Source: an uncultured Planctomycetota bacterium (GTDB lineage: Bacteria > Planctomycetota > JAJSAM01 > JAKLKS01). Taken from it: a DNA stretch of 64,000 nucleotides. Location of the stretch: assembly GCA_964370855.1 (NCBI GenBank), contig CAYJMF010000001.1, positions 5,905 to 69,904 on the forward strand. The letters run 5' to 3'. Every line of letters begins with the position of its first letter. Position 1 is the first letter of the stretch. The position numbers and the translations under genes were made by a program. Shown in pieces: positions 1 through 53,955 of this stretch. The notes beneath the pieces are model-generated. The model saw nothing but the letters and a program-made list of their open reading frames with translations. It did no database searches and had not been told where the DNA came from.

Positions 1-90
1 CTCGACGCCCGGCGGGCCGCCGCGGCCCGCGTCGAGGGGGCCAGGCGCCGGCAGCACGAAGAGGAACCGGCGCTCGAGGCGGCGATTGCG

Positions 91-531
91 ATGGCCGATG
101 AGGCGCTGAAGGAGGCCAGGAGGTGCCTCGACGAGGCCCACCGTGCCAGGTACGAGACCGGCATGGCCCTTCGGCGCCACCGGGACCGCGTCCTCGACGA
201 CATTCGCCGCGGCGAGGGGGAACTGCGGAGAACGGCCGACCCGCGGATCCTCGCCGCCTACGCCCGGGTCCACGAAGCCTGCGCCGAGTGGCACCACACC
301 GCGCGCCGGCTCCTGCGGATCGTGGTGCATGGGGAGTTCATGAACTCCTACCGCGTGGCGGAGAACGAGGCGGAGGTGAATGCGCTGGAACGGCGCCTGG
401 AGGACTGCCACGCGGCCCTGGAGAGGCTGACTCTCGTTGCGGCTCCCGCGGAGGAGGAGATCACGGCAGCGGTCCGGGAGGCCGACGCCGCGGTCGGGGC
501 GGTGACGCTGCCCGACGGCGGCGGCCGGTAG
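91..531 (+). CDS. hypothetical protein (mobile-element cargo, upstream of xis-int)
   Basis: 146-aa ORF co-directional with the downstream xis-int genes; no recognisable motif. High-GC context makes spurious ORFs common. Confidence 0.4.
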   Translation: MADEALKEARRCLDEAHRARYETGMALRRHRDRVLDDIRRGEGELRRTADPRILAAYARVHEACAEWHHTARRLLRIVVHGEFMNSYRVAENEAEVNALERRLEDCHAALERLTLVAAPAEEEITAAVREADAAVGAVTLPDGGGR

Positions 532-556: not shown

Positions 557-979
557 ATGACGAACCGGACACCGAAGTCGCGGGAGGCGAGGATGCGGGT
601 CGTGGAGGTCCTCAAGCTCGAGGCCGGCATGGTGGAGTTCATCCGCACCCCCAGCCGGGACCAGCGGCTGCGGCTCCTCGCCCTTTGGAGGCTTCAGGCC
701 GGCCTGCCCGCGTACGACCCGGCCCCCCGCCGCCCCGCCGGAAAGGGCACGCCCATCGACGTGTCCTTCCTCGTCCGGGAACAGGCCCGCGTGGAGGCGA
801 GGCGGAAGGCCCGCCGGAGGACCCTCAACGCCCTCGGTCTCCACGAGGACGCCCAGGGCCGCACCGTCTGCGTCCTCTGCGGCGAGGCGGTCTCCACGGC
901 GTTCACCGGCCTCCGGGGTGCCTCGCCCTGGGCCGAGGGGCTGTGGCACCGGACCCTGTGCGCCGCGAGGGCGACGTAG
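557..979 (+). CDS. hypothetical Cys/His-containing protein
   Basis: ATG at 557 preceded by AAGGAGG 7 nt upstream (the track starts 3 nt earlier at a GTG). Contains CVLCGE...HRTLC, a possible zinc-binding pair. 23-nt gap after the previous ORF suggests an operon. Confidence 0.5.
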   Translation: MTNRTPKSREARMRVVEVLKLEAGMVEFIRTPSRDQRLRLLALWRLQAGLPAYDPAPRRPAGKGTPIDVSFLVREQARVEARRKARRRTLNALGLHEDAQGRTVCVLCGEAVSTAFTGLRGASPWAEGLWHRTLCAARAT

Positions 980-1057: not shown

Positions 1058-1315
1058 GTGGGGCGGGCCACCATGTACCGGCTCCTGGACCAGGGGACCG
1101 TCCCCTCCGTCCGAGTCGCCTCCCTGGGGTCCCGACGGGGCCGGATCCTCGTCGTCCGCGCTGGCCTGGAGTCCTTTGTTGCCGGCCTCACCCCCGCTCC
1201 CGAACCTCATCCCCTCCCCCGTCCCGAGTCCCGGAGGCGGCCCTCGCGCCGCGTGGACGTGGACGCCCTCCGGGCCCGGATCATCGGGATCACCTCCGCC
1301 CGGGAGGCCTCCTGA
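1058..1315 (+). CDS. xis: excisionase / HTH_17-family DNA-binding protein (Xis-like)
   Basis: 85 aa; N-terminus MYRLLDQGTVPSVRV...RILVVRAGLESFV is a typical winged-helix excisionase/MerR-like HTH. Its TGA stop overlaps the integrase ATG (TGATG at 1313-1317), consistent with translational coupling. Confidence 0.6.
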   Translation: MGRATMYRLLDQGTVPSVRVASLGSRRGRILVVRAGLESFVAGLTPAPEPHPLPRPESRRRPSRRVDVDALRARIIGITSAREAS

Positions 1316-2811
1316 TGGGGCAGGAATTCCTCCAGAACTCCCTTGAGGCGCCCCCCGCCACGAGCCCTCATGTGGCCATGATCAACCACCAGACGACCGA
1401 CGCCCCCGGGCCCGAGTCCCGGGACCGACGCTCTGCGTCCTCTCCCCAGGAGGAGGGGGGCCGCCGCCGGCGCCGCCTCTTCGGCCGGATCTACCGCAAG
1501 CCGACGTCCCAGTCGACTTGGTACATCCGGTACCCCGACCCCGAGAGGCAGCGGGCGCCCAACGGTCGGGTCCGAGAGATCGTCCGGTCCGTCCCCACCC
1601 GCCGGGCCGCCGAGGCCCTCCTGGCCGAGGTCCGGCGGGCCCTCTACTCCGGCGCCTACGAATCCCCGCTTCCCGCACTGCCGGCGCCGAGCGCCCCCGG
1701 GACGGCCCCCGCTGTTCCCGGGGACCGCCCACGCACCTTCACCGTCCTCGACGCCCTCGACGAGTTCATCGACACCCGCGAGGCCGCTGGCCGGTCCCCG
1801 ACGACCATCGTCAGCTACCGCGGCCACCGGGATGCCGTCGCGCAGAGTCCCCTGGGGGTCCTCCCCGCCGCCGAGGTCACCCCCGCCGACATCGAGGCCT
1901 TCCGGGCATGGCGGCGGGAGCGGTCCTGGAGGGCCGTGCGCCGCCCCGGGCGCGTGGACGATCCCGATGTGAAGGTGATCCCCCGGGCGGCGTCGGACTC
2001 GACCGTGAACCGGGCCCTCACCGTCCTCGGGGCCGCCTTCAACAGGCTGGTGAAGCTCGGTCGCCTCCGCGAGAACCCCGTCGCCCGGGTCTCCAAGGCC
2101 CGCGAGCCCCGCCACGCCCGGGCCGCCCTCTCCAAGGACGAGGCCCGACGCCTCATCGATGCCGCGGGCCCCCACCTGCGCCCCCTCATCGTGGCCGGCC
2201 TCTACACCGGGGCCCGCCGCGGGGAACTTCTCCGTCTCACCTGGGCCGACGTGAACTTCGAGTCCGGGACCATCGCTCTCTTCCGCCCCAAGGTCGGGAA
2301 CTCCTCCCGGCTCCCTCTCCACCCCCGCCTCGCCGAGGAACTCCTCGAGGTCCGGGAGGCGCGGGCGCGGAAGCGGGGCCGCCCCGTCCCCGACGACGAG
2401 CACATCTTCCTCGCGAGGTCCGGCCGCCCCTGGGTGACCATCCAGCGCGCCTTCCTGAAGGCGCTGAGGACCGCCGGCCTCGAGGGGCGCAAGGGCCTCT
2501 GCTACCACTCGCTACGCCACACCTTCGCCGTCCACTTCCTCGAGGGCGGCGCGGCGGTCCCGGACCTCCAGGGCCTCCTCGGCCACGCGGACCTGACGAC
2601 CACCCAAGTCTACGCCCGCATGGTGGACAGCCGGACCCGAGAGAGCCTCCTGGCGCTGGACTACGGCGGCCCGCGTAGGCCCCCCCGGCCCCCCCGATCA
2701 AGATGTGGATCCCCCCCGCCCCCGCTACAATGCCGCCGTCGCGCCGGGGCACCGCCACAGCGCCCCGTCGCGGCGGACGCGAGCATGCGTGGACACCTCT
2801 TGCGAACCTGA
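1315..2811 (+). CDS. int: tyrosine recombinase / phage-type integrase
   Basis: C-terminal catalytic domain with LYTGARRGELLRL (Arg I), HSLRHTFAV (His-x-x-Arg) and LLGHADLTTTQVYARMV (catalytic Tyr). N-terminal SAM-like core-binding region (TFTVLDALDEFID...). The track ORF 685-2811 is an upstream read-through extension. An alternative start lies at ~1375. Confidence 0.8.
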   Translation: MGQEFLQNSLEAPPATSPHVAMINHQTTDAPGPESRDRRSASSPQEEGGRRRRRLFGRIYRKPTSQSTWYIRYPDPERQRAPNGRVREIVRSVPTRRAAEALLAEVRRALYSGAYESPLPALPAPSAPGTAPAVPGDRPRTFTVLDALDEFIDTREAAGRSPTTIVSYRGHRDAVAQSPLGVLPAAEVTPADIEAFRAWRRERSWRAVRRPGRVDDPDVKVIPRAASDSTVNRALTVLGAAFNRLVKLGRLRENPVARVSKAREPRHARAALSKDEARRLIDAAGPHLRPLIVAGLYTGARRGELLRLTWADVNFESGTIALFRPKVGNSSRLPLHPRLAEELLEVREARARKRGRPVPDDEHIFLARSGRPWVTIQRAFLKALRTAGLEGRKGLCYHSLRHTFAVHFLEGGAAVPDLQGLLGHADLTTTQVYARMVDSRTRESLLALDYGGPRRPPRPPRSRCGSPPPPLQCRRRAGAPPQRPVAADASMRGHLLRT

Positions 2812-2881
2812 GGTCCGCAGCGGAAACCGATGCTCGCGGGCCGTCGCCGCAAGTCGCGCACGGACGCGCAGATGCAACGGG

Positions 2882-2957
2882 GCGGGCGTAGCTCAGTGGT
2901 AGAGCATCGGCTTCCCAAGCCGAATGTCGAGGGTTCGATCCCCTTCGCCCGCTCCAA
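2882..2957 (+). tRNA. tRNA-Gly (anticodon CCC)
   Basis: GCGGGCG acceptor stem pairing with CGCCCGC (7/7). D-arm GCTC-AGTGGTA-GAGC. Anticodon arm TCGGC-TTCCCAA-GCCGA gives anticodon CCC. T-arm GAGGG-TTCGATC-CCCTT, discriminator T, encoded CCA. Folded by eye, not by software. Confidence 0.8.
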
Positions 2958-3057
2958 ATCCCCCCGAGGCTAACAGCCTCATAAGCATGGGGTTACGACG
3001 CTTTCCCTTCCTCCGAACGGTCGGTTTGGCACAACCCGTTTGTGCCCCGAAATGCCC

Positions 3058-3100
3058 CACTTTGCCGTTTCACGGCAAAGTGGACGGCAAAGTGGCGGCG
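3058..3100. repeat. perfect 11-bp inverted repeat (CCACTTTGCCG-tttca-CGGCAAAGTGG) followed by a direct repeat of CGGCAAAGTGG
   Basis: Seen directly. Lies between the tRNA 3' end and the stop of the minus-strand integrase. Candidate integrase arm-type site, att-region element or terminator. Confidence 0.4.
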
Positions 3101-3148
3101 GACCCCGGGATAGGGGGTGCGGCGGTGCTGGAAGGCCCTCGGCGAGGG

Positions 3149-4394
3149 TCAGCTCGCCGGGGCGGTCTCCACGGTCCCGGCCCCGGCCCGCCGGCCCCGC
3201 CGGCGGCGCGGAACGCCCGCCGCGGGAAGCAGGGAGGGGAGACCCTCGACGGCGCCCTTCACGTCGAAGAGGGCGAGGTCGGTGTAGGCCTTCATCGTCA
3301 GCTCCATGGAGGAGTGGCGGGCGAGGGCCTGCACGACGCGGGGATGGAGGCCGAGCGCCGCGAGCGAGGTGATGAAGGTCCCGCGGAGGGCGTGGAAGTC
3401 CACGGAGCGCCCCCCCTCGTCCACCCTCGCGATGCCCGCCGCCTCGAGGTCGCTGTGGAAGGTGCGGATCTGCGGGAAGCGGGCCGACGGGAAAACGGGA
3501 TCCTGCGGCTCTCCCTTCACCGACTTCCAGCGGTACTCCTTGAGCCACCCCGCGAGTTCCTTCCGGAGAGGGACGGACTGGTCCCTCTTCGACTTGGCCA
3601 CCGCCGCCGGAATCAAGACGGTCCCCTTCTCCAGGTCGAGATCCTTCCAGGAGAGGGCCAGCATCTCCCCCTTGCGGAGCCCCGTCCCCGCGGCGAAGGC
3701 GTAGATGAGCGCGCGGGTCTCGCCGAGGAGAAGCAGCCGCGCCTCCTCGGGAGGGGTGACGCCCCTGTGCTTCCTCTCCGCCCGGGCCTGCTCCAGCGGG
3801 CGGCGGCGAGCGGCATCGAGGAGCCGGCGTAGCTCCCCGTCGGTGAGGGCGCGCCGCACGAGGCGGCGATCGGTCTCCTCGTTGAGGGAGCGGATGTTGA
3901 TGAAGGGGTCGTAGGCGAGACGGCGGTTCCGGACGAGCCATCGGCTGAACTGGAGGAGGGCAGCGCGCATGCGGTTCACGGTCCGCGCACTCAGGCCCCG
4001 GTCGGAGCGGCCCTTGAGCCACGCGGAGGCGCGGGGGCCGTCGAGCTCCTGGAGGCCGGTGAGCCCGTTCTCCTCGACGAAGAGCTGGAGGGTCCGCTCG
4101 CGATCCTCCAGGTGGACGGGGGAGAGGCGGCGGGAGGCCAGTTCGGTGAGGAAGTCCTGGACATGGTCGCCGAGGTGGCGTTCGAGCTGGTCGTCGAAGG
4201 GAGTGACGAGGCCGGCGGCCCGGTGCTCTTCCTTCTTCGAGAGGGCGAGGGCCTTGGAGTAGGCGGCCTGCCGGTCCCGGGTTTCGAGGGAACGGCGGAT
4301 CCGCTTCCCGTCCACGGTGAGGTCCACCCAGTAGACCCGGGCCTCCCGGAGCTTCCCCTTCCCCGTGCGGAATCGCGGCTTGTACACGCGCATG
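3149..4394 (-). CDS. int: tyrosine integrase (phage integrase family), transcribed toward the tRNA
   Basis: Start MRVYKPRFRTGKGKLREARVYWVDLTVDGKRIRRSL is the AP2-like N-terminal domain typical of P4/CP4-57-type integrases. The catalytic region has GTGLRKGEMLALSWKDL (Arg), HALRGTF (H-x-x-R) and MKAYTDL (Tyr). The track ORF extends to 4717 as an upstream extension; ATG at 4394 chosen. Confidence 0.85.
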
Positions 4395-4715
4395 GCGGCC
4401 TCCCGACCCGGGGCGCGCCCTGCCGGCGCCCCCGCTCCGAGGAGCCTAACGTGGAGGGGGCCCATCGACTGCTTCTTGGTTGCCGGGGCGGTCCGGGAGT
4501 CCTCCACCGGGGCGGGGCAGGTGCGGGGCCCCCGGGGTAGAGTCCCGGGGTCACCACCGGGAGGTCCCTTGGCTGGTCCCAGATCCGTCGAACCGGGCTT
4601 CGGGCGCCGGATGCCGCGTCTCCCGGCGGTGGAGACGCTCGCCCGGATCCCCCCGCTGGCCATCCTGGTGTTCCGGGCCACGGCGCCGGTGGCGGTGCCC
4701 CGGAAGGCGACCACC

Positions 4716-5375
4716 ATGATGCCGGAGAAGGAGTGGGAGGCGAATCGGAGGATCGAGGCGGCACGGCCGGGGGCCCACGCGGCGTCGATTCGGGCTCTGG
4801 CGCGTTGGTTCCGGCACCGGGAGATCCCCGTCTACCAGGTGACGGCCCGGGCGGCCATGGTCGAGGGGGTGCTCCGGGGGCCCTGGAGGGATACCGACCC
4901 GGGGCTCGTGGGGCGACTGCTCGAGTACCCGGCGAAGCCGCGGGCGTGGGTCGAACTGCTCCCCTACCTCGAACTGTTGCGGCTCCTTCGGGTCGAAGGA
5001 CATCCGAAGGCAGTACTGGCCGCGGCCCGCGAGGCGGTCGTCGGCGCCGAGAAGTCAGGGGATCCCTTGGGGATGCTGCACGGCGTGCGGGAGGTTGCGG
5101 CGATGCTGCAGGAAGATATCGCGATCCTGCACTGGGCGTCGGTCGATGAAGCCCGCGCCGCGGCGGCTCCTTCCGCGAAGGGTGGCACCGACGGGGGGGA
5201 CCCCAAGGACCCTCTGCGAACGATTCCAGAAGCGGCGAAGAGGCTGACGCTGGGGGTCCGAACGGTATGGAGGGCCATCAGCGTCGGACAGTACCGGGTC
5301 GTCCGCCTCTCGAAGAGGGTGGTCCGCATGAAGGAGTCGGAGATCCAGAGGATTCTCCGCAATAGAGAACCGTAG
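4716..5375 (+). CDS. DNA-binding protein with C-terminal HTH_17 (excisionase/MerR-like) domain
   Basis: C-terminus IPEAAKRLTLGVRTVWRAISVGQYRVVRLSKRVVRMKESEIQRIL is an HTH_17-type helix-turn-helix. Divergent from the integrase. Start uncertain (ATG 4716 or 4611; track ORF from 4365). Confidence 0.5.
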   Translation: MMPEKEWEANRRIEAARPGAHAASIRALARWFRHREIPVYQVTARAAMVEGVLRGPWRDTDPGLVGRLLEYPAKPRAWVELLPYLELLRLLRVEGHPKAVLAAAREAVVGAEKSGDPLGMLHGVREVAAMLQEDIAILHWASVDEARAAAAPSAKGGTDGGDPKDPLRTIPEAAKRLTLGVRTVWRAISVGQYRVVRLSKRVVRMKESEIQRILRNREP

Positions 5376-6054
5376 GCTCCCATGGCAGGCCCAGCCTGGC
5401 ATTTGGGGGAGGCTGGGCGATTAGCACCAGTGGTGCGCCATTTCGTCGAAGATATTGGGTTCGGACACGGCGGTGAGGGAAGCGTCGAAGGACCGTTGTC
5501 CACCAAAGCGAGGCGAGTCCAACTATCAGGACGCTCCCGCTACACCTGAGGCGGCTCGATTGGCTCCCTCGACCACTTGCGAGCTGACGATGCATGAGGG
5601 GGATTCGGCACAGCATTTCCCCACTTCCCGATCGGACAGCTTTCTGATGCGACCCGGATCTTGGCCGCTGCCAGACACCCACACTCCAAGCAGACGACAC
5701 CCAACCCTAGCCGACTACAAGGTCCGCTCCGGCCTGGCTCCCCAAAGCAATGTTGGGATCGAACGGACTCCACTTCAGGACTAGCGCGATCGAAGGAAAG
5801 CGCCGCCCTTGACAAGCCGCGGACACCATCCCCGAGACTCCTAGCAAGGGCCCCAACCGTCGGGCGAACTCCTCTACAGCACCTCAAGAACCCCTCCCCA
5901 TCGCGGTTACCAACCCCACTTCCCCACTTCCTCCGCCACTAGTGCCTCGCAAGGTAGTTCTGGTACACCCCCGCCCGAGGGAATCCTGTACCGGAACTTT
6001 CCGCGTGTCGCCCTCGCACTACCTCGCTCCAGCCACGTCCCATGCGCGCGCACG

Positions 6055-6354
6055 CTATTCACACACCAGCGTGACAAACAGCACTGCGAACGAGAACCCC
6101 GCCACCGTCGCCACAACCACCCGAAGCGGCCGCGCAACAATAGAGAGGCGGGCTAGCACGATGCAGGCCACCATACACACGAGAGTAGCGGTCCACACAA
6201 TGCCGGCCACCATGGGCACACCCATGCGATATTCGGTGCTCTGGTTCATGAACGCCGCAAACCACGTTAGGACGCTTGCCCCTGCCGCAACAACAGCCAT
6301 CACCACCGCTCCAAGATTTGCCGCCAGCACCAGTACTCTCTTACCTCGCGGCAT
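6055..6354 (-). CDS. small membrane protein (about 3 TM helices); candidate immunity protein
   Basis: 99 aa, strongly hydrophobic (LVLAANLGAVVMAVVAAGASVLTWFAAF ... VAGIVWTATLVCMVACIVLARL ... VVVATVAGFSFAVLFVTLV). Its start overlaps the stop of the upstream lipase-domain giant protein by 14 nt. A gene immediately downstream of a toxin domain is the classic immunity position. Confidence 0.6.
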   Translation of the reverse strand: MPRGKRVLVLAANLGAVVMAVVAAGASVLTWFAAFMNQSTEYRMGVPMVAGIVWTATLVCMVACIVLARLSIVARPLRVVVATVAGFSFAVLFVTLVCE

Positions 6355-9300
6355 TGCGGAATGCCTCGCCCAGATCCGTTCCTACGCCACCGTCCGTGCC
6401 AACCCATCCAGAGTCTTCGTGCTTTGCATCATAGGTCTTTCCACCGCCCAAATCCCGCGTACTCGGAGCCAGGATCACACTATCAGCTCTAAACACAAGC
6501 TGCCCCAACTTGCTGTACTTTGACATGTATCCGACAAATGCATTCTGAATATTTCCCGGCAAACCGTAGGGCCTCGAATCAATGTTACTCGAGAAGGCCG
6601 GGGGGAACGACACATGAGTATGACCGCGCATTTGCGCCATGTCAGAGTGGTCCATCAAGCCGCTATCCACCGGATCAATAAGCCCGATAAATCGCACCTT
6701 GAGGCCGGCTCCCAAGATCTTGTTGCCCTTGCACCTACAGCCGGCCTTGCTAATGAACCCCGCAATATACATAGCCATGATTGCTCCGCGCGACCACCCC
6801 ATGATATCGATTTTTATTCTATCCTTATCACACCCCGCCTCCAAGTAGGCGCATACCTTCGAGCAGTACCATGCCATAGCCTTGTGCCACACGGCCATGA
6901 ATTCATTCGTATCCTTCAGCAGCCCCTTCCCCAGGGTGTCTGGAACGGTTGCGCTAACTTCAAAGGTATCGTAAAATGTCTCGCCGGTTGCTCCCTTGCC
7001 CTCGGCCGTCTTCTTGTAGGAGTCGCGCTGTCCCTGAATTGTGGTGTTCGTATATGGAGCATTCCCACGATTCCTGCCCCCCTCAAAGAAGAAGCCGAGC
7101 CACAGGTCCTTCTTGCAGGGGTCCTTTACCCCCTCCTTAGAGTCTCTGGTGGCACTTCGAACACCCTCAGTCGTCGCTTGGTCGGGAGGCTGCTTCGGCT
7201 TCTCCGGGACCTTCGGCTCCTCGGAGACAGGCGCTTCCTCCACCTTCTTCTGCGGTGGAACAGGCTTATCGTCCTGCGCCGGTACGGGAGGGCCCTGCTG
7301 CGCGACAGCCGTAACGGAATCTGCTGCACCAGGGAGCCCGATACCAGCAACGGAATCTCCCGTGAGTTTTCTCTGACCATCCATTAGAGGTGTGTCACCG
7401 CCGGATGGAGGAGGTCCCATGGATCCGGGTTGGCCGATATCAGGCGGCGATTCCCCCGCCCCCCCCTTTCCCTTCTCGGCCGGATCACTCGGCTCCCATT
7501 GGCAGGTGGCATTGTTGCACACAGTAGTTGGGGGACAGGGTGGGTCCATATCCTTGCACTTTGGTGGAGGTCCACAATTCGGCCACGTCCCGAGCGGTAC
7601 CACAGCGTCGTCCTGGGGGGCCTTCTTCTTTCTCTCTTCCTCCTTTCGCTTCTTCCACTCCTCCTCGGTCTCGTCGGCTCTCTTCTTCTTGTCTTCTCCC
7701 TCTTGTTCCTCCTCGTCCGCCTTTCTGTCATAGTCGTCCGCGGCCTTATCGGCCCTTGCTGCCTTTTCTTGGTAGAATGCCACAGCAGCCCAGCGACCCT
7801 CCTTCGCCGCTTGGTCCGCCTTCTTCCTGTAGTAGTCGCCCTGCTTCCTTGCCTCGCCAGCCCTTTTCCGGTTCTTCTCAGCCTCAGCGCGGTGTGCCAT
7901 TGCCTCGCGGAACATTGGATCCCGCTTTGCCCGTTCCTCGTCCGCCTTCTTCTGAAGCCTATCAAGTTCCTTCTTGTTGGCAAGTGCCTTCAACTCCAGT
8001 TCCTTCTTTTTCGCTGTATTGGCCTGTTCCTTTGCCTTATTCGACTTCTCCGTCTCCTCCTTGGCCTTCTTCGAATAGTAATCCTGCGCTGCCTTCGTAC
8101 TGGCTTTCTCAGCTTTCGCCGCGAACTCCTTAGCGCGAGCCTCATGCTTGTCCGCGGCGCGGTTGAATTTTTGAGCAGTATCACCGTGCTTCACTCCCTC
8201 CCTGAATAGGGGATCCTCCGCGGCCCTCTCTAAATCTGCGCGTCGCTGGCGCTTGGCTGCCGCCAAGGCCTCGGCAGCCTGTGTGGCACCTTCCGCCCCT
8301 CCTGCGCCTCCCTCCTTCTCAGTGATTTCCTTATATTCCTTCTCATAGTCATCAATCCTCTTCTGGGCACGTTCCGCAGCCAGAGTATCTCCACGCTTTT
8401 CAGCGTCCGCCTTCTCTTGCTTCGCGCGTTCGACGGCCAGCCTAGCCTGTCTCTCTCTGTCGGATTCAGCCAGGAGGTCCGCCGCCTCCTGCTGTAGTCG
8501 ATCAGCTCGCTCCTTTGCTCGTCTGTAGGCTTCCGCATCTCCGCGCTTCGCGGCTCTCTCCGCATCACGGGCCGCACGATCCGCCACGATAGCAGCTTCT
8601 TTGGCCCGGTCTGACGCAGCCCGCGCCCGGGCAACGACGGCGGGGTCGGCATCGTTCTCAGCATCGCGGAGCCGACTTTCCCGCTCGGCAGCGGCACTCC
8701 GAAGGCCCTGTGCTTGGTAGCGAACCTCACGAGCCTTGCGCAGCCCCTCAGGATCTCTGTACTGTTCGTCGTGTTCTCGCTCGCGCTCCCTCTGCTGCGC
8801 CCTTCGTTGAGCCGCCTGCTCTATGAGCCGCAGGATGTCTGAGGAAGGGGCTGTCGACTGCTGCGATGCCTCGAACCCTGACTTCAAGGCGTCGAGGGTC
8901 CAATAATCCAAGTCTGCCTTTGCCTGTGCGTACTCTTCCTTGGCCCTCTCCAGCTTCGTGGCCAGCTCCACTTCCTTCTTCAATGCACCCTTGAACACCG
9001 CGCCGTAGAAGGCCACGCTCTGTTCAATGCGAGCCAACCACGCAGTGTCTTCTGATTGCTCGTCCTCTCGTTTGACCTCACCCAGGATCACTCTCTTGCG
9101 AATTGAGTCTTCTTCTTCCTGAATTGCGCGGTTGTATTGCTCAGTCAAATCCTTGACCACTTCCTCAGCCTTGACCATCCGCTCGAACGCTTCATCCGCA
9201 TTGTTCTCGGCTTCCCCAGCACGCTGTACTGCGCCGACTCCTCCACCACCAGGCCCTCTTGAAGCGACCCCGGCGATTCCTGCAAGGAGATTGGCTCCAT

Positions 9301-11002
9301 GGCTGGATAGACTCGCTCCGATGCCCGGGGAGAACGGGCTAGGCGTCAAGACCCCACCTGAGACCTGAAGTTGTTTCGGAAGCAGAGAGAGCGAGTTCCC
9401 AAGCGGTTCGATGTTCAATTCACCTCTGCCAGCTGCCAACCACGATGGCCGGCTTGGCATTCCAGGCTCCGAGCCCATCAGGCCCATTTTCGTTCCCGCC
9501 GGTTCGCCACCGAACGACACTTGGATGACTTCCCCTCCTGTGACGCGCTGCAGGACTCCCCCTCCTTCATCGGGCCTAGCATAAATCAAATCGTTGACTT
9601 GGCGGACTCCGTCGACATCCTCATCACCAACGACGCCGAAGTCATGCACGCCAGCGTCCTCTTGCCAGTCCACACTCCACGGCTCGCTGTGAGGTGAATG
9701 GAATTCGGTTAACCACTTTGCGCCCCTGTGTCCATCATCCAGGCTTGGTCCGGGTGTTGCGAGGACACCTCCGCCTGGACCAAGGTCAGAGCCTCCGAGG
9801 TCAAAGTCTCCTGAAGTCGGAGGAGCCAGAACCGGAGGAAACCAGGGTCTCTCGAACCTGCTCGGGTCCACTGCGGCTATTACCGAGTCCTGTGGAGAAA
9901 GATAGGGTTCTGCTCTGAACTCCCGGAGTGGGCTGGAGTGAACCGGTGTAATCGTCGAGAGGATTGGTACTGAGGGAGGCTGCGTACTCGAATCGGCTAC
10001 CCCAGCTCCCGTGGTTCCTCCCGGCGGCCTATGGCCCTCTTCCTCTCTCCTTCGGGGCGGAGGCTCATCCGGAAGCGAAGGCAGCGGTCCACCGGACATC
10101 TGCCCTGCAGGAGACGCAAGGGGCTGGCCGCCGGCCACTTCAGAATCTGGCTCCTCATCCGTACGACGCCCGGCGACTGTTACGCCTCCGGAACCAGTAC
10201 CCTTCATCCTCTCTGGTTCCTGGGCCTCCTTTGGCGCTGCCTTTGATGCCAGAGGCGCATGGGAATCACCGGGGAGTTCCACTTCCTTCCCAACCACGGA
10301 GTGTCCCCCAGCCACTCTCAGCCCTGCCACCGACTCCTGCGGTCGCCCTCCGCCCATTGATTGGCCGGAGATACCTTCACCTGCAGGGTCCGCTCCTCCG
10401 GGTCCAGGTGCCATTCGAAAGCCCTGCTCACCGTAGCCCCTCGTAAGTTGCCCAGAGAACATTGAACCTGGGAAAGCACAGGCACCCGTAGGATGGCCCG
10501 AGCATGTACCAGGAGAATTCGGAACTGTGAAGGTGAGCGCCCACAGGGGCGCCACCTCCGGAGGAGGCGACGCGCCCTCGGCAACCTGTCCTTTAGGAGG
10601 AGTGCCCAGGTCAGGAGTGACACGGTCCATCCCTGCCGGCTCTTGGGGGGGGGTGAAAGGCGCATGCGTAGGCAGGCAGTCGCACTTCGCCACACACTTC
10701 TGTCCGCCCCCTTTCCCCACGACATCCTGCTTCGGTACGTCGAATTGCGCGTCCTTGATAGGGAGCGGGGCGCCCTTGGGCGATAAGGCCCCGGCTCCAT
10801 CGCCACCCCCGGCTTGGGAATCTGCCGGAGCCTCGCTCTGGTTCCCCTTGGCGCTTGGTGGGCTAGCCTGCTGCGGTTTCTGGTCCTTCCTGGTGTCCGG
10901 AGGCGTGACTACAGGCTCAGGGCTCCCCTCGCGGGGGGGGGATTCGCATCCCTCGCACCCGCAGTCACCCGAACTTCCTCCGGCACCGGTATTGCAGGCC
11001 AT
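6341..11002 (-). CDS. giant (1553 aa) protein: Gly/Pro/Ser-rich N-terminus, ~600-aa Ala/Lys/Glu/Arg coiled-coil stalk, Cys-rich linker, C-terminal DUF2235 (Tle1-like alpha/beta-hydrolase, predicted lipase/phospholipase) domain
   Basis: AGAGGAG SD upstream of the ATG at 11002. C-terminal region has LWLGFFFEGGRNRGN, the nucleophile elbow IDIMGWSRGAIMAMYIAGFI (GxSRGA) and VRFIGLIDPVDS, which match the DUF2235 triad of signature motifs (FDGTxN / GFSRGA / FLGVWDTV). The central region is a heptad-like Ala/Lys/Glu/Arg repeat (AKEEYAQAKADLDY..., DRAKEAAIVADRAARDAERAAKRGDAEAYRRAKERADRLQ...). The lipase-domain DNA (about 6341-7400) is visibly lower GC (~52-55%) than the flanks. Confidence 0.8.
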   Translation of the reverse strand: MACNTGAGGSSGDCGCEGCESPPREGSPEPVVTPPDTRKDQKPQQASPPSAKGNQSEAPADSQAGGGDGAGALSPKGAPLPIKDAQFDVPKQDVVGKGGGQKCVAKCDCLPTHAPFTPPQEPAGMDRVTPDLGTPPKGQVAEGASPPPEVAPLWALTFTVPNSPGTCSGHPTGACAFPGSMFSGQLTRGYGEQGFRMAPGPGGADPAGEGISGQSMGGGRPQESVAGLRVAGGHSVVGKEVELPGDSHAPLASKAAPKEAQEPERMKGTGSGGVTVAGRRTDEEPDSEVAGGQPLASPAGQMSGGPLPSLPDEPPPRRREEEGHRPPGGTTGAGVADSSTQPPSVPILSTITPVHSSPLREFRAEPYLSPQDSVIAAVDPSRFERPWFPPVLAPPTSGDFDLGGSDLGPGGGVLATPGPSLDDGHRGAKWLTEFHSPHSEPWSVDWQEDAGVHDFGVVGDEDVDGVRQVNDLIYARPDEGGGVLQRVTGGEVIQVSFGGEPAGTKMGLMGSEPGMPSRPSWLAAGRGELNIEPLGNSLSLLPKQLQVSGGVLTPSPFSPGIGASLSSHGANLLAGIAGVASRGPGGGGVGAVQRAGEAENNADEAFERMVKAEEVVKDLTEQYNRAIQEEEDSIRKRVILGEVKREDEQSEDTAWLARIEQSVAFYGAVFKGALKKEVELATKLERAKEEYAQAKADLDYWTLDALKSGFEASQQSTAPSSDILRLIEQAAQRRAQQREREREHDEQYRDPEGLRKAREVRYQAQGLRSAAAERESRLRDAENDADPAVVARARAASDRAKEAAIVADRAARDAERAAKRGDAEAYRRAKERADRLQQEAADLLAESDRERQARLAVERAKQEKADAEKRGDTLAAERAQKRIDDYEKEYKEITEKEGGAGGAEGATQAAEALAAAKRQRRADLERAAEDPLFREGVKHGDTAQKFNRAADKHEARAKEFAAKAEKASTKAAQDYYSKKAKEETEKSNKAKEQANTAKKKELELKALANKKELDRLQKKADEERAKRDPMFREAMAHRAEAEKNRKRAGEARKQGDYYRKKADQAAKEGRWAAVAFYQEKAARADKAADDYDRKADEEEQEGEDKKKRADETEEEWKKRKEEERKKKAPQDDAVVPLGTWPNCGPPPKCKDMDPPCPPTTVCNNATCQWEPSDPAEKGKGGAGESPPDIGQPGSMGPPPSGGDTPLMDGQRKLTGDSVAGIGLPGAADSVTAVAQQGPPVPAQDDKPVPPQKKVEEAPVSEEPKVPEKPKQPPDQATTEGVRSATRDSKEGVKDPCKKDLWLGFFFEGGRNRGNAPYTNTTIQGQRDSYKKTAEGKGATGETFYDTFEVSATVPDTLGKGLLKDTNEFMAVWHKAMAWYCSKVCAYLEAGCDKDRIKIDIMGWSRGAIMAMYIAGFISKAGCRCKGNKILGAGLKVRFIGLIDPVDSGLMDHSDMAQMRGHTHVSFPPAFSSNIDSRPYGLPGNIQNAFVGYMSKYSKLGQLVFRADSVILAPSTRDLGGGKTYDAKHEDSGWVGTDGGVGTDLGEAFRNAAR

Positions 11003-11014
11003 CGCTCCTCTATG

Positions 11015-11374
11015 CTAGCTCAGCCGCTGCTCGAGGAACCCCACCGCCCACCCGGTCAGGACGGGATCAGACCCCGCGATCGTGATCTTGAGCCGGAACC
11101 AGCGCCTCGTCAGGGTCGCGGACATCTGGACCTCGGTGCTGGCCCCGACCGCGGTGGGACCGCCTCCCGTGCAGGTCGACCAGCTGTTCTGATCCGTCGA
11201 CTCCTGCGCGGTCACGCTCCAGGTCGCTCCCGCCGGGACGTCGGGTCCGCGCCAGAGGCTCAGGAGGGCAGTCTGGTACTCCGTCACGTCCATGGCGATC
11301 GTGTAGAAGTCCGTCGCCCCTGCGAACGTGGTGAACCGCGGCACCATCACGACCGGCACGAGCTCGCCCGCCAT
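11015..11374 (-). CDS. small beta-rich protein, paralog family member 1 (PRFT...WRGP...GGG...WFRLKITI...WAVGFLEQRL)
   Basis: 119 aa from ATG 11374 with AGGAGG SD. Shares conserved blocks with the ORFs at 11480, 12363, 12762, 13444 and 13740. Its stop is 13 nt upstream of the giant gene's start. Confidence 0.7.
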   Translation of the reverse strand: MAGELVPVVMVPRFTTFAGATDFYTIAMDVTEYQTALLSLWRGPDVPAGATWSVTAQESTDQNSWSTCTGGGPTAVGASTEVQMSATLTRRWFRLKITIAGSDPVLTGWAVGFLEQRLS

Positions 11375-11479
11375 CTCTTCCTCCTGGGCTCTTGGCCCTG
11401 TCCTGCATCTCACCAGAAACCGTCGTTACCAGGGCCGGCCTCGTTCAGCGCATGCCACGAGCCGTTACCCTACCATCTC

Positions 11480-11848
11480 CTAGACCAGTCGCTGCTCCAA
11501 GTACCCCGTTGCCCACACCGTCACCGCGGCATCCGAGCTTGTGCCCAACGGCAGGTCGATCTTCATCCGCAGCCACCGGCGCCTGAGGTTCTGAGCGATG
11601 ATAGTTGTCAGGTCCTCCCCCGGATCAACCGGGGACCCGAGATCCTGCCATGTTTCCGCATCGTGCGAGTGCTGAAGGACCACGCTGAAAGTCCCTCCAC
11701 CCTGTACGGGACCGCGCCACACTGTCAGGACACAACGGGAGTATCTGTCGACCTGGAGCGCTACCGTCACGAAAGAACTGTTCCCGAAGTACGATGTAAA
11801 GCGCGGAGCCATGACGAGTGGGACCTGAACACCCTTGGGCTGTGCCAC
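11480..11848 (-). CDS. small beta-rich protein, paralog family member 2
   Basis: 122 aa; GTG start with GGGAGG SD. Motifs LVMAPRFTSYFG, VWRGPVQGGGTFSV, RRWLRMKIDL, VWATGYLEQRLV align to paralog 1. Confidence 0.7.
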   Translation of the reverse strand: MAQPKGVQVPLVMAPRFTSYFGNSSFVTVALQVDRYSRCVLTVWRGPVQGGGTFSVVLQHSHDAETWQDLGSPVDPGEDLTTIIAQNLRRRWLRMKIDLPLGTSSDAAVTVWATGYLEQRLV

Positions 11849-11937
11849 TTCAACCTCCCGTTTGGTCTGCCGACCGGTCGCGGCTCTTCACTTCCGTTGG
11901 AACCCGGCGTCGCACGTCAAGCACTCTAGACATCGTC

Positions 11938-12300
11938 CTAGGTGAACTCGATAACAACGACCTGAACGGGAGCGACAAGACCTACGCCGTCGATTTCCCC
12001 CTCGTAGGTTACTCCCGCGGGGAAGGTGAACAGCCCTCCCGGAGGCACGAGGAGGTCCGTAACCAGGACGGGGCCGACACCCAGTCGGATATTCAGGGGA
12101 TTCACGGGGTCCAAGTTCTGGATCAAGACCTGGAACCTCCCTTGAAGCGGCGCAGCAATCGCCATGCTCGCTCCGACGAGGTAGTAGTTCGTCGTTACCC
12201 CGGAGATGGCACCGCGCACGGTGAGCTCGCCCTTCGTACCAACGAGCATCCCCGTCCCGAGTCCTTTCAGGCCGTCTTGGATCATATTGAATTCCGGCAT
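11938..12300 (-). CDS. small Gly-rich beta protein, not a member of the paralog family
   Basis: 120 aa; ATG with GGGAGG SD. Gly/Val-rich (GLKGLGTGMLVGTKGELTVRG...FTFPAGVTYEGEIDGVGLVAPVQVVVIEF). Embedded within the paralog array and co-oriented with it. Confidence 0.65.
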   Translation of the reverse strand: MPEFNMIQDGLKGLGTGMLVGTKGELTVRGAISGVTTNYYLVGASMAIAAPLQGRFQVLIQNLDPVNPLNIRLGVGPVLVTDLLVPPGGLFTFPAGVTYEGEIDGVGLVAPVQVVVIEFT

Positions 12301-12362
12301 CTCGCCTCCCTATGACCGCTTCTTCGTCGGAACTTCCAGCTCCGAACTCCCGTGGCCTGGTT

Positions 12363-12731
12363 CTAAGCCCCAGACCTCTTGTCGAAGTCGCCCACGGCCC
12401 AGCATGTGTACCCGGGATCAGGAGCCCCCCCGGTGATCGTGATCTTCAAGCGCAGCCACTCCGTCTCGAGCGCCGCGAACGCCTGTGCCACCTCCTGCTC
12501 ATCAGCAGGCGTGAAGGGAGTCCCTTCCGAGGTCCAAATCACCAGATCGGGAGATTTCTCGACCTGGACGGAAAACGTCGGAGTACCACCACCGATGGTC
12601 ATCCCCTTCCACACACTCATGTTTGCAGAGGAGTACTGCCGCACGTTCACGGGAGCAGTGGCGTACTCCATCGCTCCGGATAGGCTCGTGAACCTGGGCA
12701 GAAGCACGATCTTGTCCACATCGGCAGCCAT
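12363..12731 (-). CDS. small beta-rich protein, paralog family member 3
   Basis: 122 aa; AAGGAGG SD. IVLLPRFTSLSG, VWKGMTIGGGTPTFSV, EWLRLKITITGG, YTCWAVGDF. Confidence 0.7.
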   Translation of the reverse strand: MAADVDKIVLLPRFTSLSGAMEYATAPVNVRQYSSANMSVWKGMTIGGGTPTFSVQVEKSPDLVIWTSEGTPFTPADEQEVAQAFAALETEWLRLKITITGGAPDPGYTCWAVGDFDKRSGA

Positions 12732-12761
12732 CGTAAGACCTCCTTCATACTGACCTGTGCC

Positions 12762-13133
12762 CTACCGCAGAAGGCCCTCGGCCCAGCACGTTACGCGAGT
12801 GTTCGAACCGTAAATGACGATTCGCAATCTGAACCACCGAAGCCGGAACCCATAGCTGAAGAACCTGCCGTCCGTACCGGGGTCAATCCCGTATGCTGAC
12901 GTGCCCGCTCCCGTAATCCAGTCCTGGCCGTTTAGCGATTCCTCGATGTACATCGTGAATGTCGGAGTAGCCCCACCTCCGAGAGGCCCGCGTCGGAATT
13001 CGAATTCGGCCGACGCGTATTCTGAGATATCCAGTGGCTGGGTCGTGAAGACGAACGAACCGGGCGTCGTTCCCTTGCCGACAAGCGTCGTGAACCTCGG
13101 GAGCAGCGTCAGAGCCGACTTCGCATACCCCAT
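12762..13133 (-). CDS. small beta-rich protein, paralog family member 4
   Basis: ATG 13133 (MGYAKS...) with AGGAGGAG SD; the track ORF extends to 13169. LTLLPRFTTLVG, FRRGPLGGGATPTFTM, RWFRLRIVIYG, VTCWAEGLL. Confidence 0.7.
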   Translation of the reverse strand: MGYAKSALTLLPRFTTLVGKGTTPGSFVFTTQPLDISEYASAEFEFRRGPLGGGATPTFTMYIEESLNGQDWITGAGTSAYGIDPGTDGRFFSYGFRLRWFRLRIVIYGSNTRVTCWAEGLLR

Positions 13134-13443
13134 TCGCCTGCTCCTCCTATGGGCGACAAGTGTGAGCATTGACGCAAACGGTTGACGGATTCAAGACGAA
13201 GTCATTGCTGCCTTGCCTTTCGCGGCGACTCGAGTCCTCGCTGTCCAGACCGATGGTCTCCGCATATTCGGGCCTCCGCCTGGAATGGCCTTGGGCGTCG
13301 CCGAGCTGGGGCATGTCCAGAGGAGGCGCGGGGAACTCGGACCAGGACCGCCTTGCGGGAGCAGATGCGCGCGACAAGTCTCTGGTTCTGCCATCGACAG
13401 CTTGTGCCGGCATGGGTGTTATCCCTACGGGTCTCGAAGGCAC

Positions 13444-13743
13444 CTACCTGTCCCCTTCTCTGAACCAGCGCACTCTCATGCGCGCATCTCCGCCGAATTG
13501 CCGCAGCCGCAACCGTCCCCAAGAAGTCCCCTGCGGTCGGCAGGGAACCGATTGCCGCTGGCCAGGGGACACGACTCCGGAGAGTATCCCGGTCCAGAAC
13601 GACTTGTCCTCGCTACCCTCCAGGACGAAATCGACTGCCCCGGTGTACTGTGGGACGGATTCGACCGCTTCGATGTAGACGACGCCTCCCGCCCTGCAGT
13701 CGAACGGCTCGGTGACGAACTCGTTCGCTTGTTCCACGTTCAC
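13444..13743 (-). CDS. divergent paralog family member 5 (lacks the N-terminal PRFT block)
   Basis: 99 aa; GTG start with GGGGAGGA SD. Its start overlaps the upstream gene's stop (GTGA). VDFVLEGSEDKSFWT and WGRLRLRQFGG...RVRWFREG align with the TFSV...W and WLRLKITITGG...CWAVG blocks of members 1-4. Confidence 0.55.
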   Translation of the reverse strand: MNVEQANEFVTEPFDCRAGGVVYIEAVESVPQYTGAVDFVLEGSEDKSFWTGILSGVVSPGQRQSVPCRPQGTSWGRLRLRQFGGDARMRVRWFREGDR

Positions 13744-14150
13744 TCCTCCCCACCATCCTTGGTGCGCTCCCCTGTCCTGCGTCGGCGCACGGAGGACTGC
13801 CTTCGACTGGCCCTCCCCATCACGGACGGACGGTGGGGCCCGGACCGCGCGGACACGCGCTTCTGGCTCATTGTCGGGAGCTCGTCGGAACCTCGTTCGG
13901 TGTCGTCCGTCTGGATGATCCGGATTGTGAGCTTGCGCCCTATGGGGATGGAGATGGCGCGGAAGGCCGAGACATCGATGAACGCCTGTACTTCATTGCT
14001 TCCGACGATCGTCGAGTATCGCGGGTAGAACTCGAGGGGTACGACCTTCGCATGGGAGGGCTCGGGGGAACGCTTGCGGAAGTCACGCCTCCCTCTCGCC
14101 TTGGCGGCACGCCTCTCCTTGTTTGACTCCTGCCGTGGTCGCGCGCTCAT
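13740..14150 (-). CDS. divergent paralog family member 6 with basic N- and C-terminal tails
   Basis: ATG 14150 (MSARPRQ...) with GGGAGG SD 5 nt upstream; the track ORF extends to 14216. VVPLEFYPRYSTIVG resembles the LLPRFTxxxG block. Highly basic termini (RRAAKARGRRDFRKR; RRQSSVRRRRTGERTK). First gene of the operon. Confidence 0.55.
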   Translation of the reverse strand: MSARPRQESNKERRAAKARGRRDFRKRSPEPSHAKVVPLEFYPRYSTIVGSNEVQAFIDVSAFRAISIPIGRKLTIRIIQTDDTERGSDELPTMSQKRVSARSGPHRPSVMGRASRRQSSVRRRRTGERTKDGGEE

Positions 14151-14291
14151 TCGACCTCCCTTGCGTCCATTGTCGTTCCTGAGTTCCTGTGTAGGCCATG
14201 GCCCCGCTGTCGTCAACTCACCTTTGGAGCGGGGCCTTCACCGTTGGAGCGGACCCCGCTCGAGAGGTTCCACCCGCCCGCATCAATGGCC

Positions 14292-15107
14292 TCACTCGAT
14301 TGGGAAGGGGATGTTTCGCCTAGTGTAGGCTCGATTCAGGGAATAGGCATTCGCGAGGCCAACGGATGCGGCGATCTGACTCTCGCCACGTTGGAGGCGG
14401 ACCCCACTCTGCACCCTTGCGTGAAAGAACTCCCAAGCGACTTCTTCGGGGGGTAGACCTACGGTCGATATGCAGAGACGCTTGAGGACATGGCGATTCA
14501 CTCCGAGTGCTCTGGCCCAGGACTTCACCTGGAAGTCCGACCCCACTTTTAGGGTGAGGAGCGCCTTTCGCATCTTCTCCCTCTTGGAAAGGAGACTGAA
14601 GGGCTTCTCGTCGGAGAGATCCGCGCCTCCGTTCCGGCAGGCCGCCGCAATCCTCTGCGAGATCTCTCCTTCGGGAACGAATTCGATGGGGCATCTGCGC
14701 GCCCAGTCGGCGACCACATGGGCGGGGCAGTCGGGTGCGTCGGCGAAGGAGGTGCAACCGGGCCGTTTCAGGAGTGAAGCGACTACCGAGGGTCTGAGCC
14801 GCATGAGCGCCTCGACCCCGAGGACCACCACATGAGGGCCGGACTGGAACTCCAGCACATGAAGGAGCCTTCGGGCTTCTACCCTGATTGCCGAAAGGTG
14901 GTGACCGTCGAGATTCAAGTCGACGACGCCTGCCAGGATGAGCGGCACGGAAACGGCCGCAACCGATGCCATAGCTTCCAACAATGCAGCCATGGATTCG
15001 CTGGCTGGAGCGACATCGAGGGCATTGGCCTTGCCCCTTCGGGGCTGGAGGCTGGCCGCTGCGGGAGAACCACCTCTTGTGGGGCGATCGCCGCCTTTCA
15101 GTGCCAT
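14292..15107 (-). CDS. AraC/XylS-family transcriptional regulator
   Basis: C-terminal double HTH (VKSWARALGVNRHVLKRL ... IAASVGLANAYSLNRAYTRR) typical of the AraC family. Start ambiguous (15107 or 14993; track ORF to 15218). Confidence 0.6.
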   Translation of the reverse strand: MALKGGDRPTRGGSPAAASLQPRRGKANALDVAPASESMAALLEAMASVAAVSVPLILAGVVDLNLDGHHLSAIRVEARRLLHVLEFQSGPHVVVLGVEALMRLRPSVVASLLKRPGCTSFADAPDCPAHVVADWARRCPIEFVPEGEISQRIAAACRNGGADLSDEKPFSLLSKREKMRKALLTLKVGSDFQVKSWARALGVNRHVLKRLCISTVGLPPEEVAWEFFHARVQSGVRLQRGESQIAASVGLANAYSLNRAYTRRNIPFPIE

Positions 15108-15597
15108 CCCATCCTCGGACTTCATGCACTTGTTCCCTGTCTGCGAGGAACTCCCCGGACCGGCATCCTCGAACTCTCCATCAGTTCCTCTCTCCCCGGC
15201 GCCGGTGGAACCCGGCACTTTCGATTCGTCCTTTTGTCCGCAGTTGCCTCCGCGGCGGCGCGCCCAATGCGCCCCACTGGAGATAGAACGCCCGAGACCC
15301 GCAAATCTGTCGCGGGATCCCGAGAATCTTCCGCAAACCTCCTATCCTCCGGGCCGGCCCCGCCCACCCCCGGGGCCCTACACCCCCCCAGAGGCATTGA
15401 ACCCGCCCCGGAATCGAAAAGGGCCGCTGACCACAGACCGTCCCCCTGCCGGGATGCACTGCCCCCCCGACGAGGGGGACCGCTGCCTGTGTCAGCGGCC
15501 CTTCGAGAGGGACCTTAACGAGAGGCCGGTCCGGAAGTCAAGCGCCTGTTTCGATGCCGGGAGTGCCCCCAGCGTGCGCTGGTCGCCCCGGGCCGGA

Positions 15598-26188: not shown

Positions 26189-26237
26189 GGCGTCCTCCAC
26201 GACCGTGTCCAGCCCATTCACTGGTAGCCTCTCCCTG

Positions 26238-26299
26238 CATTGCAGCGCATGCCATCATCGACGTGTCAGTTGCTCACGGGAAGGACAATCGTGGTCCCC
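26238..26299 (-). promoter_or_regulatory. conserved ~62-bp cis-element, copy 1 (upstream of the lipoprotein gene)
   Basis: cattgcagcgcatgccatcatcgacgtgtcagttgctcacgggaaggacaatcgtggtcccc; about 54/62 identical to copy 2 at 33672-33733. In gene sense it contains CACG-N11-CGTG. Confidence 0.5.
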
Positions 26300-26420
26300 T
26301 CCCGTTACGGCTGGTCTGCACCGCCAACACCGACCGGATGGCCAGCGTCACGTGGATCCACTGGCGACACTCGGCGGAGTTCCCGACCTACGGACTGCGC
26401 GACCTCGAACCCGTGAGTGC

Positions 26421-33605: not shown

Positions 33606-33671
33606 CGGCACCCCACCGTTCAGCGCCCGTCTGCTCCGATTCTCTCCTTCAGCAGCCGGAGGAACTCCCTT

Positions 33672-39793: not shown

Positions 39794-39811
39794 TGCCCAG
39801 GAGGGGAGCGC

Positions 39812-53945: not shown

Positions 53946-53955
53946 GAGGTGTTCG

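Follow-up and report, generated by a model that had tools for sequence, protein, structure and literature searches.

Classic islands on the 3´ side of tRNA genes are exemplified by the P4-like islands and by tRNA-integrating integrative and conjugative elements (ICEs). Among the 3,919 islands catalogued by Islander, 3,760 displace a 3´ fragment of the tRNA gene (tDNA) and 159 (~4%) a 5´ fragment; 2,083 have an anticodon-centred attP site, and 125 tandem arrays of islands were found at a single tDNA (PMC4383910). In a further arrangement, the tRNA-dependent lysogeny of actinobacteriophages, a core of ~10 bp is shared with attB, the host tRNA is not rebuilt, and a separate complete tRNA is carried (PMC10865867). 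Here we describe a 64,000-nt stretch from an uncultured Planctomycetota bacterium (GCA_964370855.1, contig CAYJMF010000001.1, positions 5,905 to 69,904; hereafter the window), in which one tRNA-Gly(CCC) gene is flanked by two tyrosine integrase genes. These encode Int-A, which belongs to an element upstream of the tRNA (element A), and Int-B, which belongs to an island downstream of it (island B). The locus probably represents two unrelated integrative elements on opposite sides of a single tRNA gene. Both kinds of element are already known; what we add is the two-sided arrangement and the observation that the upstream position is shared across the Int-A clade.

The original prediction placed the tRNA gene between two different tyrosine integrases, and both ARAGORN and the PF00589 matches on either side confirmed this layout (Table 1). 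Int-A and Int-B share 32% identity across 180 residues, and thus are genuinely different integrases. Int-A resembles XerA/XerC/XerD by NCBIfam. The R-K-H-R-H-Y catalytic set is complete in Int-A, as judged by alignment to XerA, and invariant across the Int-A clade alignment; all six residues likewise are kept in Int-B when it is aligned to XerD. For element A as for island B, an integrase gene within the candidate island lies beside an intact tRNA gene, one of the features by which Islander defines islands. Homologues of the two integrases from named sources derive mostly from Planctomycetota metagenome-assembled genomes, and searches of IMG/VR with Int-A, with Int-B and with the ~80-nt conserved segment that precedes the tRNA gave no close relatives. 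The exact 75-nt tRNA sequence had no match among 185,579 GTDB species genomes, indicating that no close reference genome exists. Metagenome contigs in ENA (source assemblies ERZ13692940-ERZ13693126; e.g. ERZ13693126 NODE_138, 195 kb) are identical to the window, and all reach 5,904 nt leftward of its first position before breaking off, bearing out the earlier suggestion that the window start cuts the upstream element. Window position 1 corresponds to position 5905 of the extended contig (L002), and negative positions refer to the additional 5.9 kb.

Relatives of the two modules showed that each occurs independently of the other. On a 1.86-Mb contig (L004), a 65% relative of Int-B (P0003) lies tail-to-tail with a tRNA-Gly(CCC), 168 nt apart, with no element A and with an ordinary STAS-domain gene upstream of the tRNA. 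Two other loci, L009 and L054, carry element A without Int-B-type sequence downstream of the tRNA, and the window carries both. Given that gene order differs among the relatives, we favor insertions over an ancestral arrangement. The two checks proposed with the original prediction therefore had a split outcome: a search for att direct repeats found none, while the comparison of gene order argued for insertions. The inference of two separate integrative elements stood. We considered L009 and L004 as an occupied and empty pair and rejected this, as L009 has the exact tRNA of L004 but unrelated flanks. In at least four samples (L137 and three similar contigs), a contig starts at 2868, one nt past the 80-nt segment and 14 nt short of the tRNA 5´ end; this is probably a branch of the assembly graph, which would fit a present/absent polymorphism of element A.

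The arrangement had been suggested to reflect tandem or nested islands. Like the tandem arrays in Islander, the locus has more than one integrase-bearing element at a single tRNA gene. However, the members of a tandem array share one side and each has its own tDNA fragment, whereas here each element has its own side of the tRNA and would use its own half of the gene, so the term tandem does not apply; nesting likewise was not supported for two independent elements on opposite sides.

We next compared the loci of the close Int-A clade, defined by at least 67% identity, six of which, the window included, have enough sequence to judge. In all six, an xis-int pair is followed by a co-oriented tRNA, which starts 31-203 nt past the int stop, with two tRNA species represented. 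The gap between the int stop and a tRNA-Gly(CCC) is 70 nt in the window (~200 nt from the ancestral stop), 163 nt in L009 (80% identity to Int-A) and ~200 nt in L054 (78%), and that between the int stop and a tRNA-Arg(CCT) is 32 nt in L007 (74%), 30 nt in L008 (67%) and ~30 nt in L063 (83%, partial match). More distant relatives, at 42-47% identity to Int-A, show the canonical convergent order in L056 (tRNA-His) and L060 (tRNA-Val), and the others have no tRNA nearby. At two further junctions, in L061 and at L008:14177-14282, the int 3´ end and spacer are followed by nt 1-39 of tRNA-Arg, and the sequences diverge sharply right after the loop TTCCTAA. An attP-like junction would have this appearance if the end of the element carried the tRNA 5´ half and the crossover fell in the anticodon loop. 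The same xis-int-tRNA order in six loci, together with the two anticodon-loop junctions, argues that the tRNA is the attachment site and is entered from the 5´ side. The alternative raised previously, that the att site of the second element lies elsewhere, thus most likely does not hold, and the upstream location of Int-A is a property of the clade rather than an accident.

In these respects, element A resembles the 5´-fragment class of Islander. It lies 5´ of the regenerated tRNA and points in the same direction, an arrangement found in the window and five relatives, with a tyrosine integrase at the tRNA-proximal end, and the element end in Arg-type relatives consists of the tRNA 5´ half up to the anticodon loop, corresponding to the "A" crossover subsite. 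An attP-like junction with the 5´ portion of a tRNA was observed for the Arg-type L061 and the second L008 copy only. In contrast to the Islander class, no displaced 5´ fragment was detectable for element A of the window. The Int-A clade also differs in being from Planctomycetota, in using two tRNA species (Gly-CCC and Arg-CCT), and in having the attP arm directly after the int stop, which it overlaps in the Arg-types.

The L008 contig (NCBI GCA_964607145.1, contig CAZSIX010000015.1) has an additional feature, in that the 106-bp block at 14177-14282 is an inverted, 98% identical copy of 11362-11467. Each copy is composed of the int 3´ end, the spacer and the tRNA-Arg 5´ half, and between the two lies a segment of 2.7 kb with the tRNA 3´ half and three genes. 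This segment could be invertible by the integrase, giving an intact tRNA-Arg in either orientation. We also noted that the 80-nt segment, which lies between int and the tRNA in the Gly-types, is across the crossover and in the opposite orientation in the Arg-type attP-like junctions, a rearrangement of arm sites between sister subclades.

The gap of 70 nt reported between the Int-A stop (2811) and the start of the tRNA (2882) is correct for the ORF (open reading frame) as it stands. The ancestral stop, however, is a TAG at 2676-2678, the stop used by L012 (96% identical), L009 and L054. The window Int-A lacks one G just before this TAG, and the 1-nt deletion adds 44 codons, such that the ORF runs to 2811. 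The extra 44-aa tail is translated from conserved att-arm DNA (2673-2811), and L012 keeps the normal stop. A population variant contig, L134 (ERZ13692946 NODE_299), has a 120-nt in-frame tandem duplication at 2642-2679, the C-terminal end of Int-A, giving a protein of 538 rather than 498 aa; the duplication could be real or an assembly artefact. The true spacer ahead of the tRNA is ~200 nt of conserved non-coding DNA. This DNA includes a motif with a -10-like TAnAAT box (TACAAT at 2728-2733 in the window), for which a promoter role may be proposed from the alignments, and the 80-nt segment, which is 82-86% identical in L009, L054 and L061 and 78% identical in L008. We considered a structured RNA for this segment and rejected it, since its folding was no better than that of shuffled sequence (z=-0.55) and Rfam had no family matching the non-coding pieces. 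Given the lack of folding, the segment is more likely a protein-binding arm region than an RNA.

Upstream of Int-A, the small Xis-like (excisionase-like) gene gave a weak match to HTH_17, a helix-turn-helix (HTH) family (E=0.038; its score of 14.7 bits is below the cut-off of 27). The ATG of Int-A overlaps its stop codon (TGATG), and genes with weak HTH_17 marks are found at the counterpart position in L007 and L008. Its position and the overlap with int fit a putative Xis.

To the left, element A extends ~5.3 kb beyond the window. The contig carrying the Int-A relative P0123 (80% protein identity), JGI contig L009, is syntenic with element A, and DNA homology of 71-83% runs from L002:620 (window position about -5285) to L002:8861, stopping on both sides. 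The right limit is exactly the 3´ end of the tRNA. These limits give an element of ~8.2 kb, from about -5290 to the tRNA. Genes in the additional 5.9 kb encode proteins of 194, 88, 927, 129, 166, 211 and 128 aa, after which come the Xis-like gene and Int-A. The 927-aa protein matches phrog_29234 (E=6e-79) and the "DNA primase/helicase" family phrog_239 (E=1e-16), and the 211-aa and 128-aa proteins have no Pfam or PHROG match. Element A is without the virion structural and packaging genes of a prophage, its proteins matching only primase/helicase PHROGs, and no Pfam match to capsid, tail or terminase was found among most large ORFs of the 64 kb.

On the other side of the tRNA, Int-B was said to be in the canonical position and orientation for an island inserted at the tRNA 3´ end, and this was upheld. 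Int-B is tail-to-tail with the tRNA 3´ end at a spacing of 192 nt, and its relatives in L004 and L189 also face the 3´ end of a tRNA-Gly(CCC), at 2.4 kb in the case of L189 (48% identity). Another 48% relative, in L006, has no adjacent tRNA. The family is large, with 183 matches at E≤1e-10. Two details of the original prediction required correction. The upper coordinate of the gene is 4393, the earlier 4394 being one base too far, and the "P4-like N-terminus" was not recovered: at E≤0.05, a Pfam scan of Int-B gave only PF00589, PF02899 (Phage_int_SAM_1) and a weak DUF6538, with no P4-type arm-binding or SAM-like domain. We take the P4-type N-terminal domains to be PF13356 (arm-DNA-binding) and PF14659/PF22022 (SAM-like).

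Between the tRNA and Int-B are three exact copies of a 12-nt sequence, arranged as CCACTTTGCCG-N4-CGGCAAAGTGGACGGCAAAGTGG. This block is identical in the window, L004 and L005, whereas the DNA flanking it is only ~70% identical between the window and L004. There is no further exact copy in the window, and the 12-mer used as a marker of the far end gave only 2-mismatch matches at chance level. From this conservation, the three copies are candidate arm-type sites of Int-B in attL; the block, which folds as a hairpin with z=-6.2, could also act as a terminator. Divergent from Int-B, the gene for the 254-aa protein, which matches HTH_17 (E=0.019), TIGR01764 (E=0.0018) and phrog_66 "excisionase and transcriptional regulator" (E=2.2e-5), has a counterpart adjoining int in L004 and L005, and its product is a candidate regulator or recombination directionality factor. 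Island B thus resembles the canonical 3´-side islands in its integrase convergent with the tRNA 3´ end, the repeated arm-type motifs between the two, the divergent excisionase-type HTH gene and the variable cargo. In contrast to these islands, it has no 3´ fragment (attR) within 61 kb, its cargo is compositionally mixed, and the core-binding domain of Int-B is of the XerD-like SAM_1 type, with no arm-binding domain of the P4 type.

These observations suggest a history in which Int-B would have recombined an attP carrying a tRNA 3´ part into the chromosomal gene, leaving int tail-to-tail with the regenerated tRNA. The three copies of ACGGCAAAGTGG, as its arm-type sites, would separate the two, and the lower-GC patchwork of defence genes would follow int. 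Element A would carry its attP immediately 3´ of int, as a conserved non-coding arm (the TAnAAT box and the 80-nt segment) followed by the tRNA 5´ half up to the anticodon loop. With such an attP, recombination in the anticodon loop (2912-2918 in the window tRNA) would place element A upstream of the tRNA, whose own 5´ half, and presumably promoter, would be replaced by copies from element A. The Gly-type element may use the same crossover point as the Arg-types, element A may supply the tRNA promoter, and either element may still be active. In its fullest form, this history would have the tRNA-Gly(CCC) rebuilt wholly from mobile DNA, with promoter and 5´ half from element A and 3´ part from island B, by an Int-A clade that has inverted att geometry and later switched between tRNA-Gly and tRNA-Arg targets; we regard this fullest form as possible but doubtful.

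Several points weigh against the interpretation of two elements and the history built on it. No repeat of at least 14 nt of the region 2781-3160 was found within the window, the longest being 12-13 nt and at chance level, and no half-copy of the tRNA-Gly (up to six substitutions) was present in the window plus the extra 5.9 kb. The displaced tDNA fragment in direct orientation that marks the far end of Islander islands accordingly was absent from this same sequence, and island B had no attR repeat in the 61 kb of the window behind the tRNA; att repeats for the Int-B family likewise were lacking in L189 and L004. Similarity between the left boundary of element A and the tRNA was at chance in shuffle-controlled local alignment (p = 0.4-0.6). 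A tRNA-like remnant at the left end of the contig or of element A, which we had considered, was rejected, as ARAGORN, Rfam and the shuffle-controlled alignment gave nothing significant. Island B thus showed no defined far end, and the compositionally heterogeneous 5-61 kb may correspond to several accretions instead of one 55-kb island. On the side of element A, the anticodon-loop crossover is documented for Arg-type relatives alone and for no Gly-type element, and the second L008 block is inverted and downstream of the tRNA, on the "wrong" side, reflecting a rearrangement. The frameshift-derived C-terminal tail might impair Int-A, and a scan with the sigma-70 consensus gave no full promoter around the TAnAAT box.

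The absence of a displaced 5´ fragment at the left boundary of element A also bears on another explanation, in which the whole tRNA-Gly(CCC) is cargo of element A, located at the right end, and the element inserts at another site or interrupts a host tRNA without rebuilding it, with island B later entering the carried tRNA. Some phages are known to carry a tRNA that makes up for one disrupted in the host (PMC10865867), and the homology between element A and L009 spans the entire tRNA, ending exactly at its 3´ end. However, any tRNA is expected to be conserved, and homology that continues into the 3´ half is therefore of little weight. The Arg-type attP-like junctions hold only the 5´ half and the loop, and, unlike in tRNA-dependent lysogeny, such a half-tRNA at the element end implies that the gene is reconstituted. 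Further, the near-identical tRNA-Gly(CCC) of L004 has ordinary upstream genes, indicating that related hosts have it as a normal gene of the chromosome. Taken together, we consider carriage of the whole tRNA unlikely.

The lack of att repeats for either element also could be expected if the region were ancestral chromosome that has become fixed, its integrases decayed or domesticated and beside the tRNA by chance, with no mobility left. Both integrase genes are at the presumed backbone GC content (72-75%), and the end of Int-A is frameshifted. Such an ancestral origin is nonetheless decidedly improbable, given that all catalytic residues are kept in both integrases, that relatives whose DNA is 76-83% identical to element A are in unrelated flanks, and that L004 is without element A and L009 and L054 are without Int-B-type downstream sequence; in addition, contigs from some samples begin at 2868, a hint of polymorphism. 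Finally, one composite element of ~21 kb that has the direct repeats R as its limits, with both integrases and the tRNA internal, is highly improbable, for although R is the only significant direct repeat bracketing the locus and its right copy is at a GC step from ~62% to ~75%, the integrases are ~7 kb and ~11 kb from the R copies, R is absent from all relatives, the relatives of each integrase associate with tRNA genes independently, and the long hairpin into which R folds (z=-2.7 to -5.3) together with the break of all contigs ~60 nt to its left suggest a dispersed genomic repeat, as which we regard R and which would explain these breaks.

With two elements at opposite ends of the tRNA as the preferred interpretation, the locus would offer a clear example of a single tRNA gene serving as a two-sided landing pad. 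The clade comparison shows that placement of an integrase on the "wrong" side of a tRNA can mark a whole integrase clade instead of an oddity of annotation. The Int-A clade, a small group of related integrases in which att geometry is flipped and two tRNA specificities occur, could aid both island-finding software, which mostly expects 3´ fragments, and the mining of integrases with new targets. If element A indeed provides promoter and 5´ half, the supply of host tRNA-Gly(CCC) would be tied to the element, with a possible stabilising or addiction-like effect, and if the tRNA is rebuilt from mobile DNA, expression of a chromosomal tRNA would depend on a resident mobile element. The clade then also would be a natural system for how integrases change tRNA side and identity.

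Table 1. Coordinates of features at the tRNA-Gly(CCC) locus and in island B (window positions; negative positions lie to the left of the window)
Feature	Position	Strand	Details
Repeat R	left -5844 to -5722 (L002:60-182); right 15384-15505 (+)		123 bp, direct, 88% identity, E=1e-37
211-aa gene of element A, 3´ part	1-531	+	L002:5800-6435; starts 104 nt before the window
128-aa gene of element A	593-979	+	L002:6497-6883
Xis-like small gene	1058/1073-1315	+	80-85 aa; sole match HTH_17, weak
Int-A, tyrosine integrase of element A	1315-2811	+	498 aa; PF00589 E=2.4e-24, 86.5 bits (cut-off 27.1)
Motif GCTACAATGCCGCCGTCGC (TAnAAT...CCGTCGC), -10-like box	2724-2742	+	from alignments; just after int in all clade members
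~80-nt conserved segment with palindrome GCGAACCTGAGGTCCGC	2788-2866	+	directly upstream of tRNA; also L061:875-952 and L008:14045-14123
tRNA-Gly(CCC)	2882-2956	+	ARAGORN; Rfam RF00005, 73 bits; sole tRNA in the window
Three exact 12-nt copies of ACGGCAAAGTGG	3057-3095		one inverted, two tandem direct; between tRNA and int
Int-B, tyrosine integrase of island B	3149-4393	-	414 aa; PF00589 E=6.5e-23, 81.8 bits (cut-off 27.1); Phage_int_SAM_1 E=3.7e-6
254-aa protein, C-terminal excisionase-type HTH	4611-5375	+	divergent from Int-B
Lowest-GC module	5400-15384		57-65% GC over 5-15 kb; 1553-aa low-complexity protein and tandem small-gene family
PD-Lambda-1-type defence protein (DUF4041 + T5orf172)	19704-22217	-	E=3.5e-153
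IS1595-family insertion sequence	22949-24076	-	45-bp terminal inverted repeats
Shango operon region	26231-33737	-	bracketed by 73-bp direct repeats
SngC	26421-28976	-	PADLOC
SngB	28973-30012	-	PADLOC
SngA	30009-33692	-	PADLOC
Subtilase, IetA (AAA ATPase), IetS (subtilase)	34002-42331	+	ietAS-type module
NERD nuclease	42509-43144		
Glycosyltransferase, radical-SAM and kinase trio	43110-45641		
1902-aa DUF4011-helicase-MTES_1575 nuclease	46041-51749	-	Hhe / PDC-S37-like
Hypoth_Ymh/HEPN-like protein and Abi_alpha protein	53836-56208		

The earlier estimate of ~55 kb of cargo for island B was supported in part, as composition and gene content fit but no boundary repeat was found. GC content is 57-69% over 5.4-61 kb, compared with 72-75% at both ends of the window, with an exception of 74-76% at 16-18 kb. 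Like defence islands at tRNA hotspots, the region downstream of the tRNA and integrase combines PD-Lambda-1, Shango, IetAS, Hhe-like, HEPN/Ymh and Abi_alpha genes with an insertion sequence (Table 1), and compared with such islands nothing is unusual in island B except the host phylum; with it, the Shango, IetAS, PD-Lambda-1 and Hhe-type defence systems gain examples from Planctomycetota. For Shango, the genes for SngA, SngB and SngC are adjacent (E=3.8e-84, 1.3e-156 and 9.1e-281, respectively), and for ietAS, IetA (E=3.2e-70) is beside IetS (E=1.8e-34). The 73-bp direct repeats (26231-26303 and 33665-33737, 85% identical) exactly bracket the complete Shango operon and could bound a mobile defence cassette.

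We also noted several genes with few or no recognizable relatives. The 1553-aa protein of the lowest-GC module (6341-11002, minus strand) has long low-complexity, charged, coiled-coil-like regions and no Pfam match, and gene callers disagree on its length, giving 1110 or 1553 aa. It is followed by five tandem small genes on the same strand (11015-13133), encoding proteins of 119-123 aa, of which four, at 34-44% identity, clearly are paralogues; the five have no significant family match, with one weak F5/8 type C match. A 1000-aa ORF (15598-18600, minus strand) with ~74-76% GC lies between lower-GC segments and has no Pfam or PHROG match; this stretch could belong to the backbone or could be cargo that came from a different high-GC donor. 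Toward the right end of the window, a 1014-aa protein (60931-63975) was considered as a synteny anchor to a 1013-aa protein of L004 and rejected, the similarity being confined to repeat domains. A 413-aa protein (59581-60822, minus strand), encoded near the point at which GC content regains the backbone level, has an N-terminal resolvase-type HTH_7 and no recognized catalytic domain, and might be the product of a transposase-like gene near the island edge.

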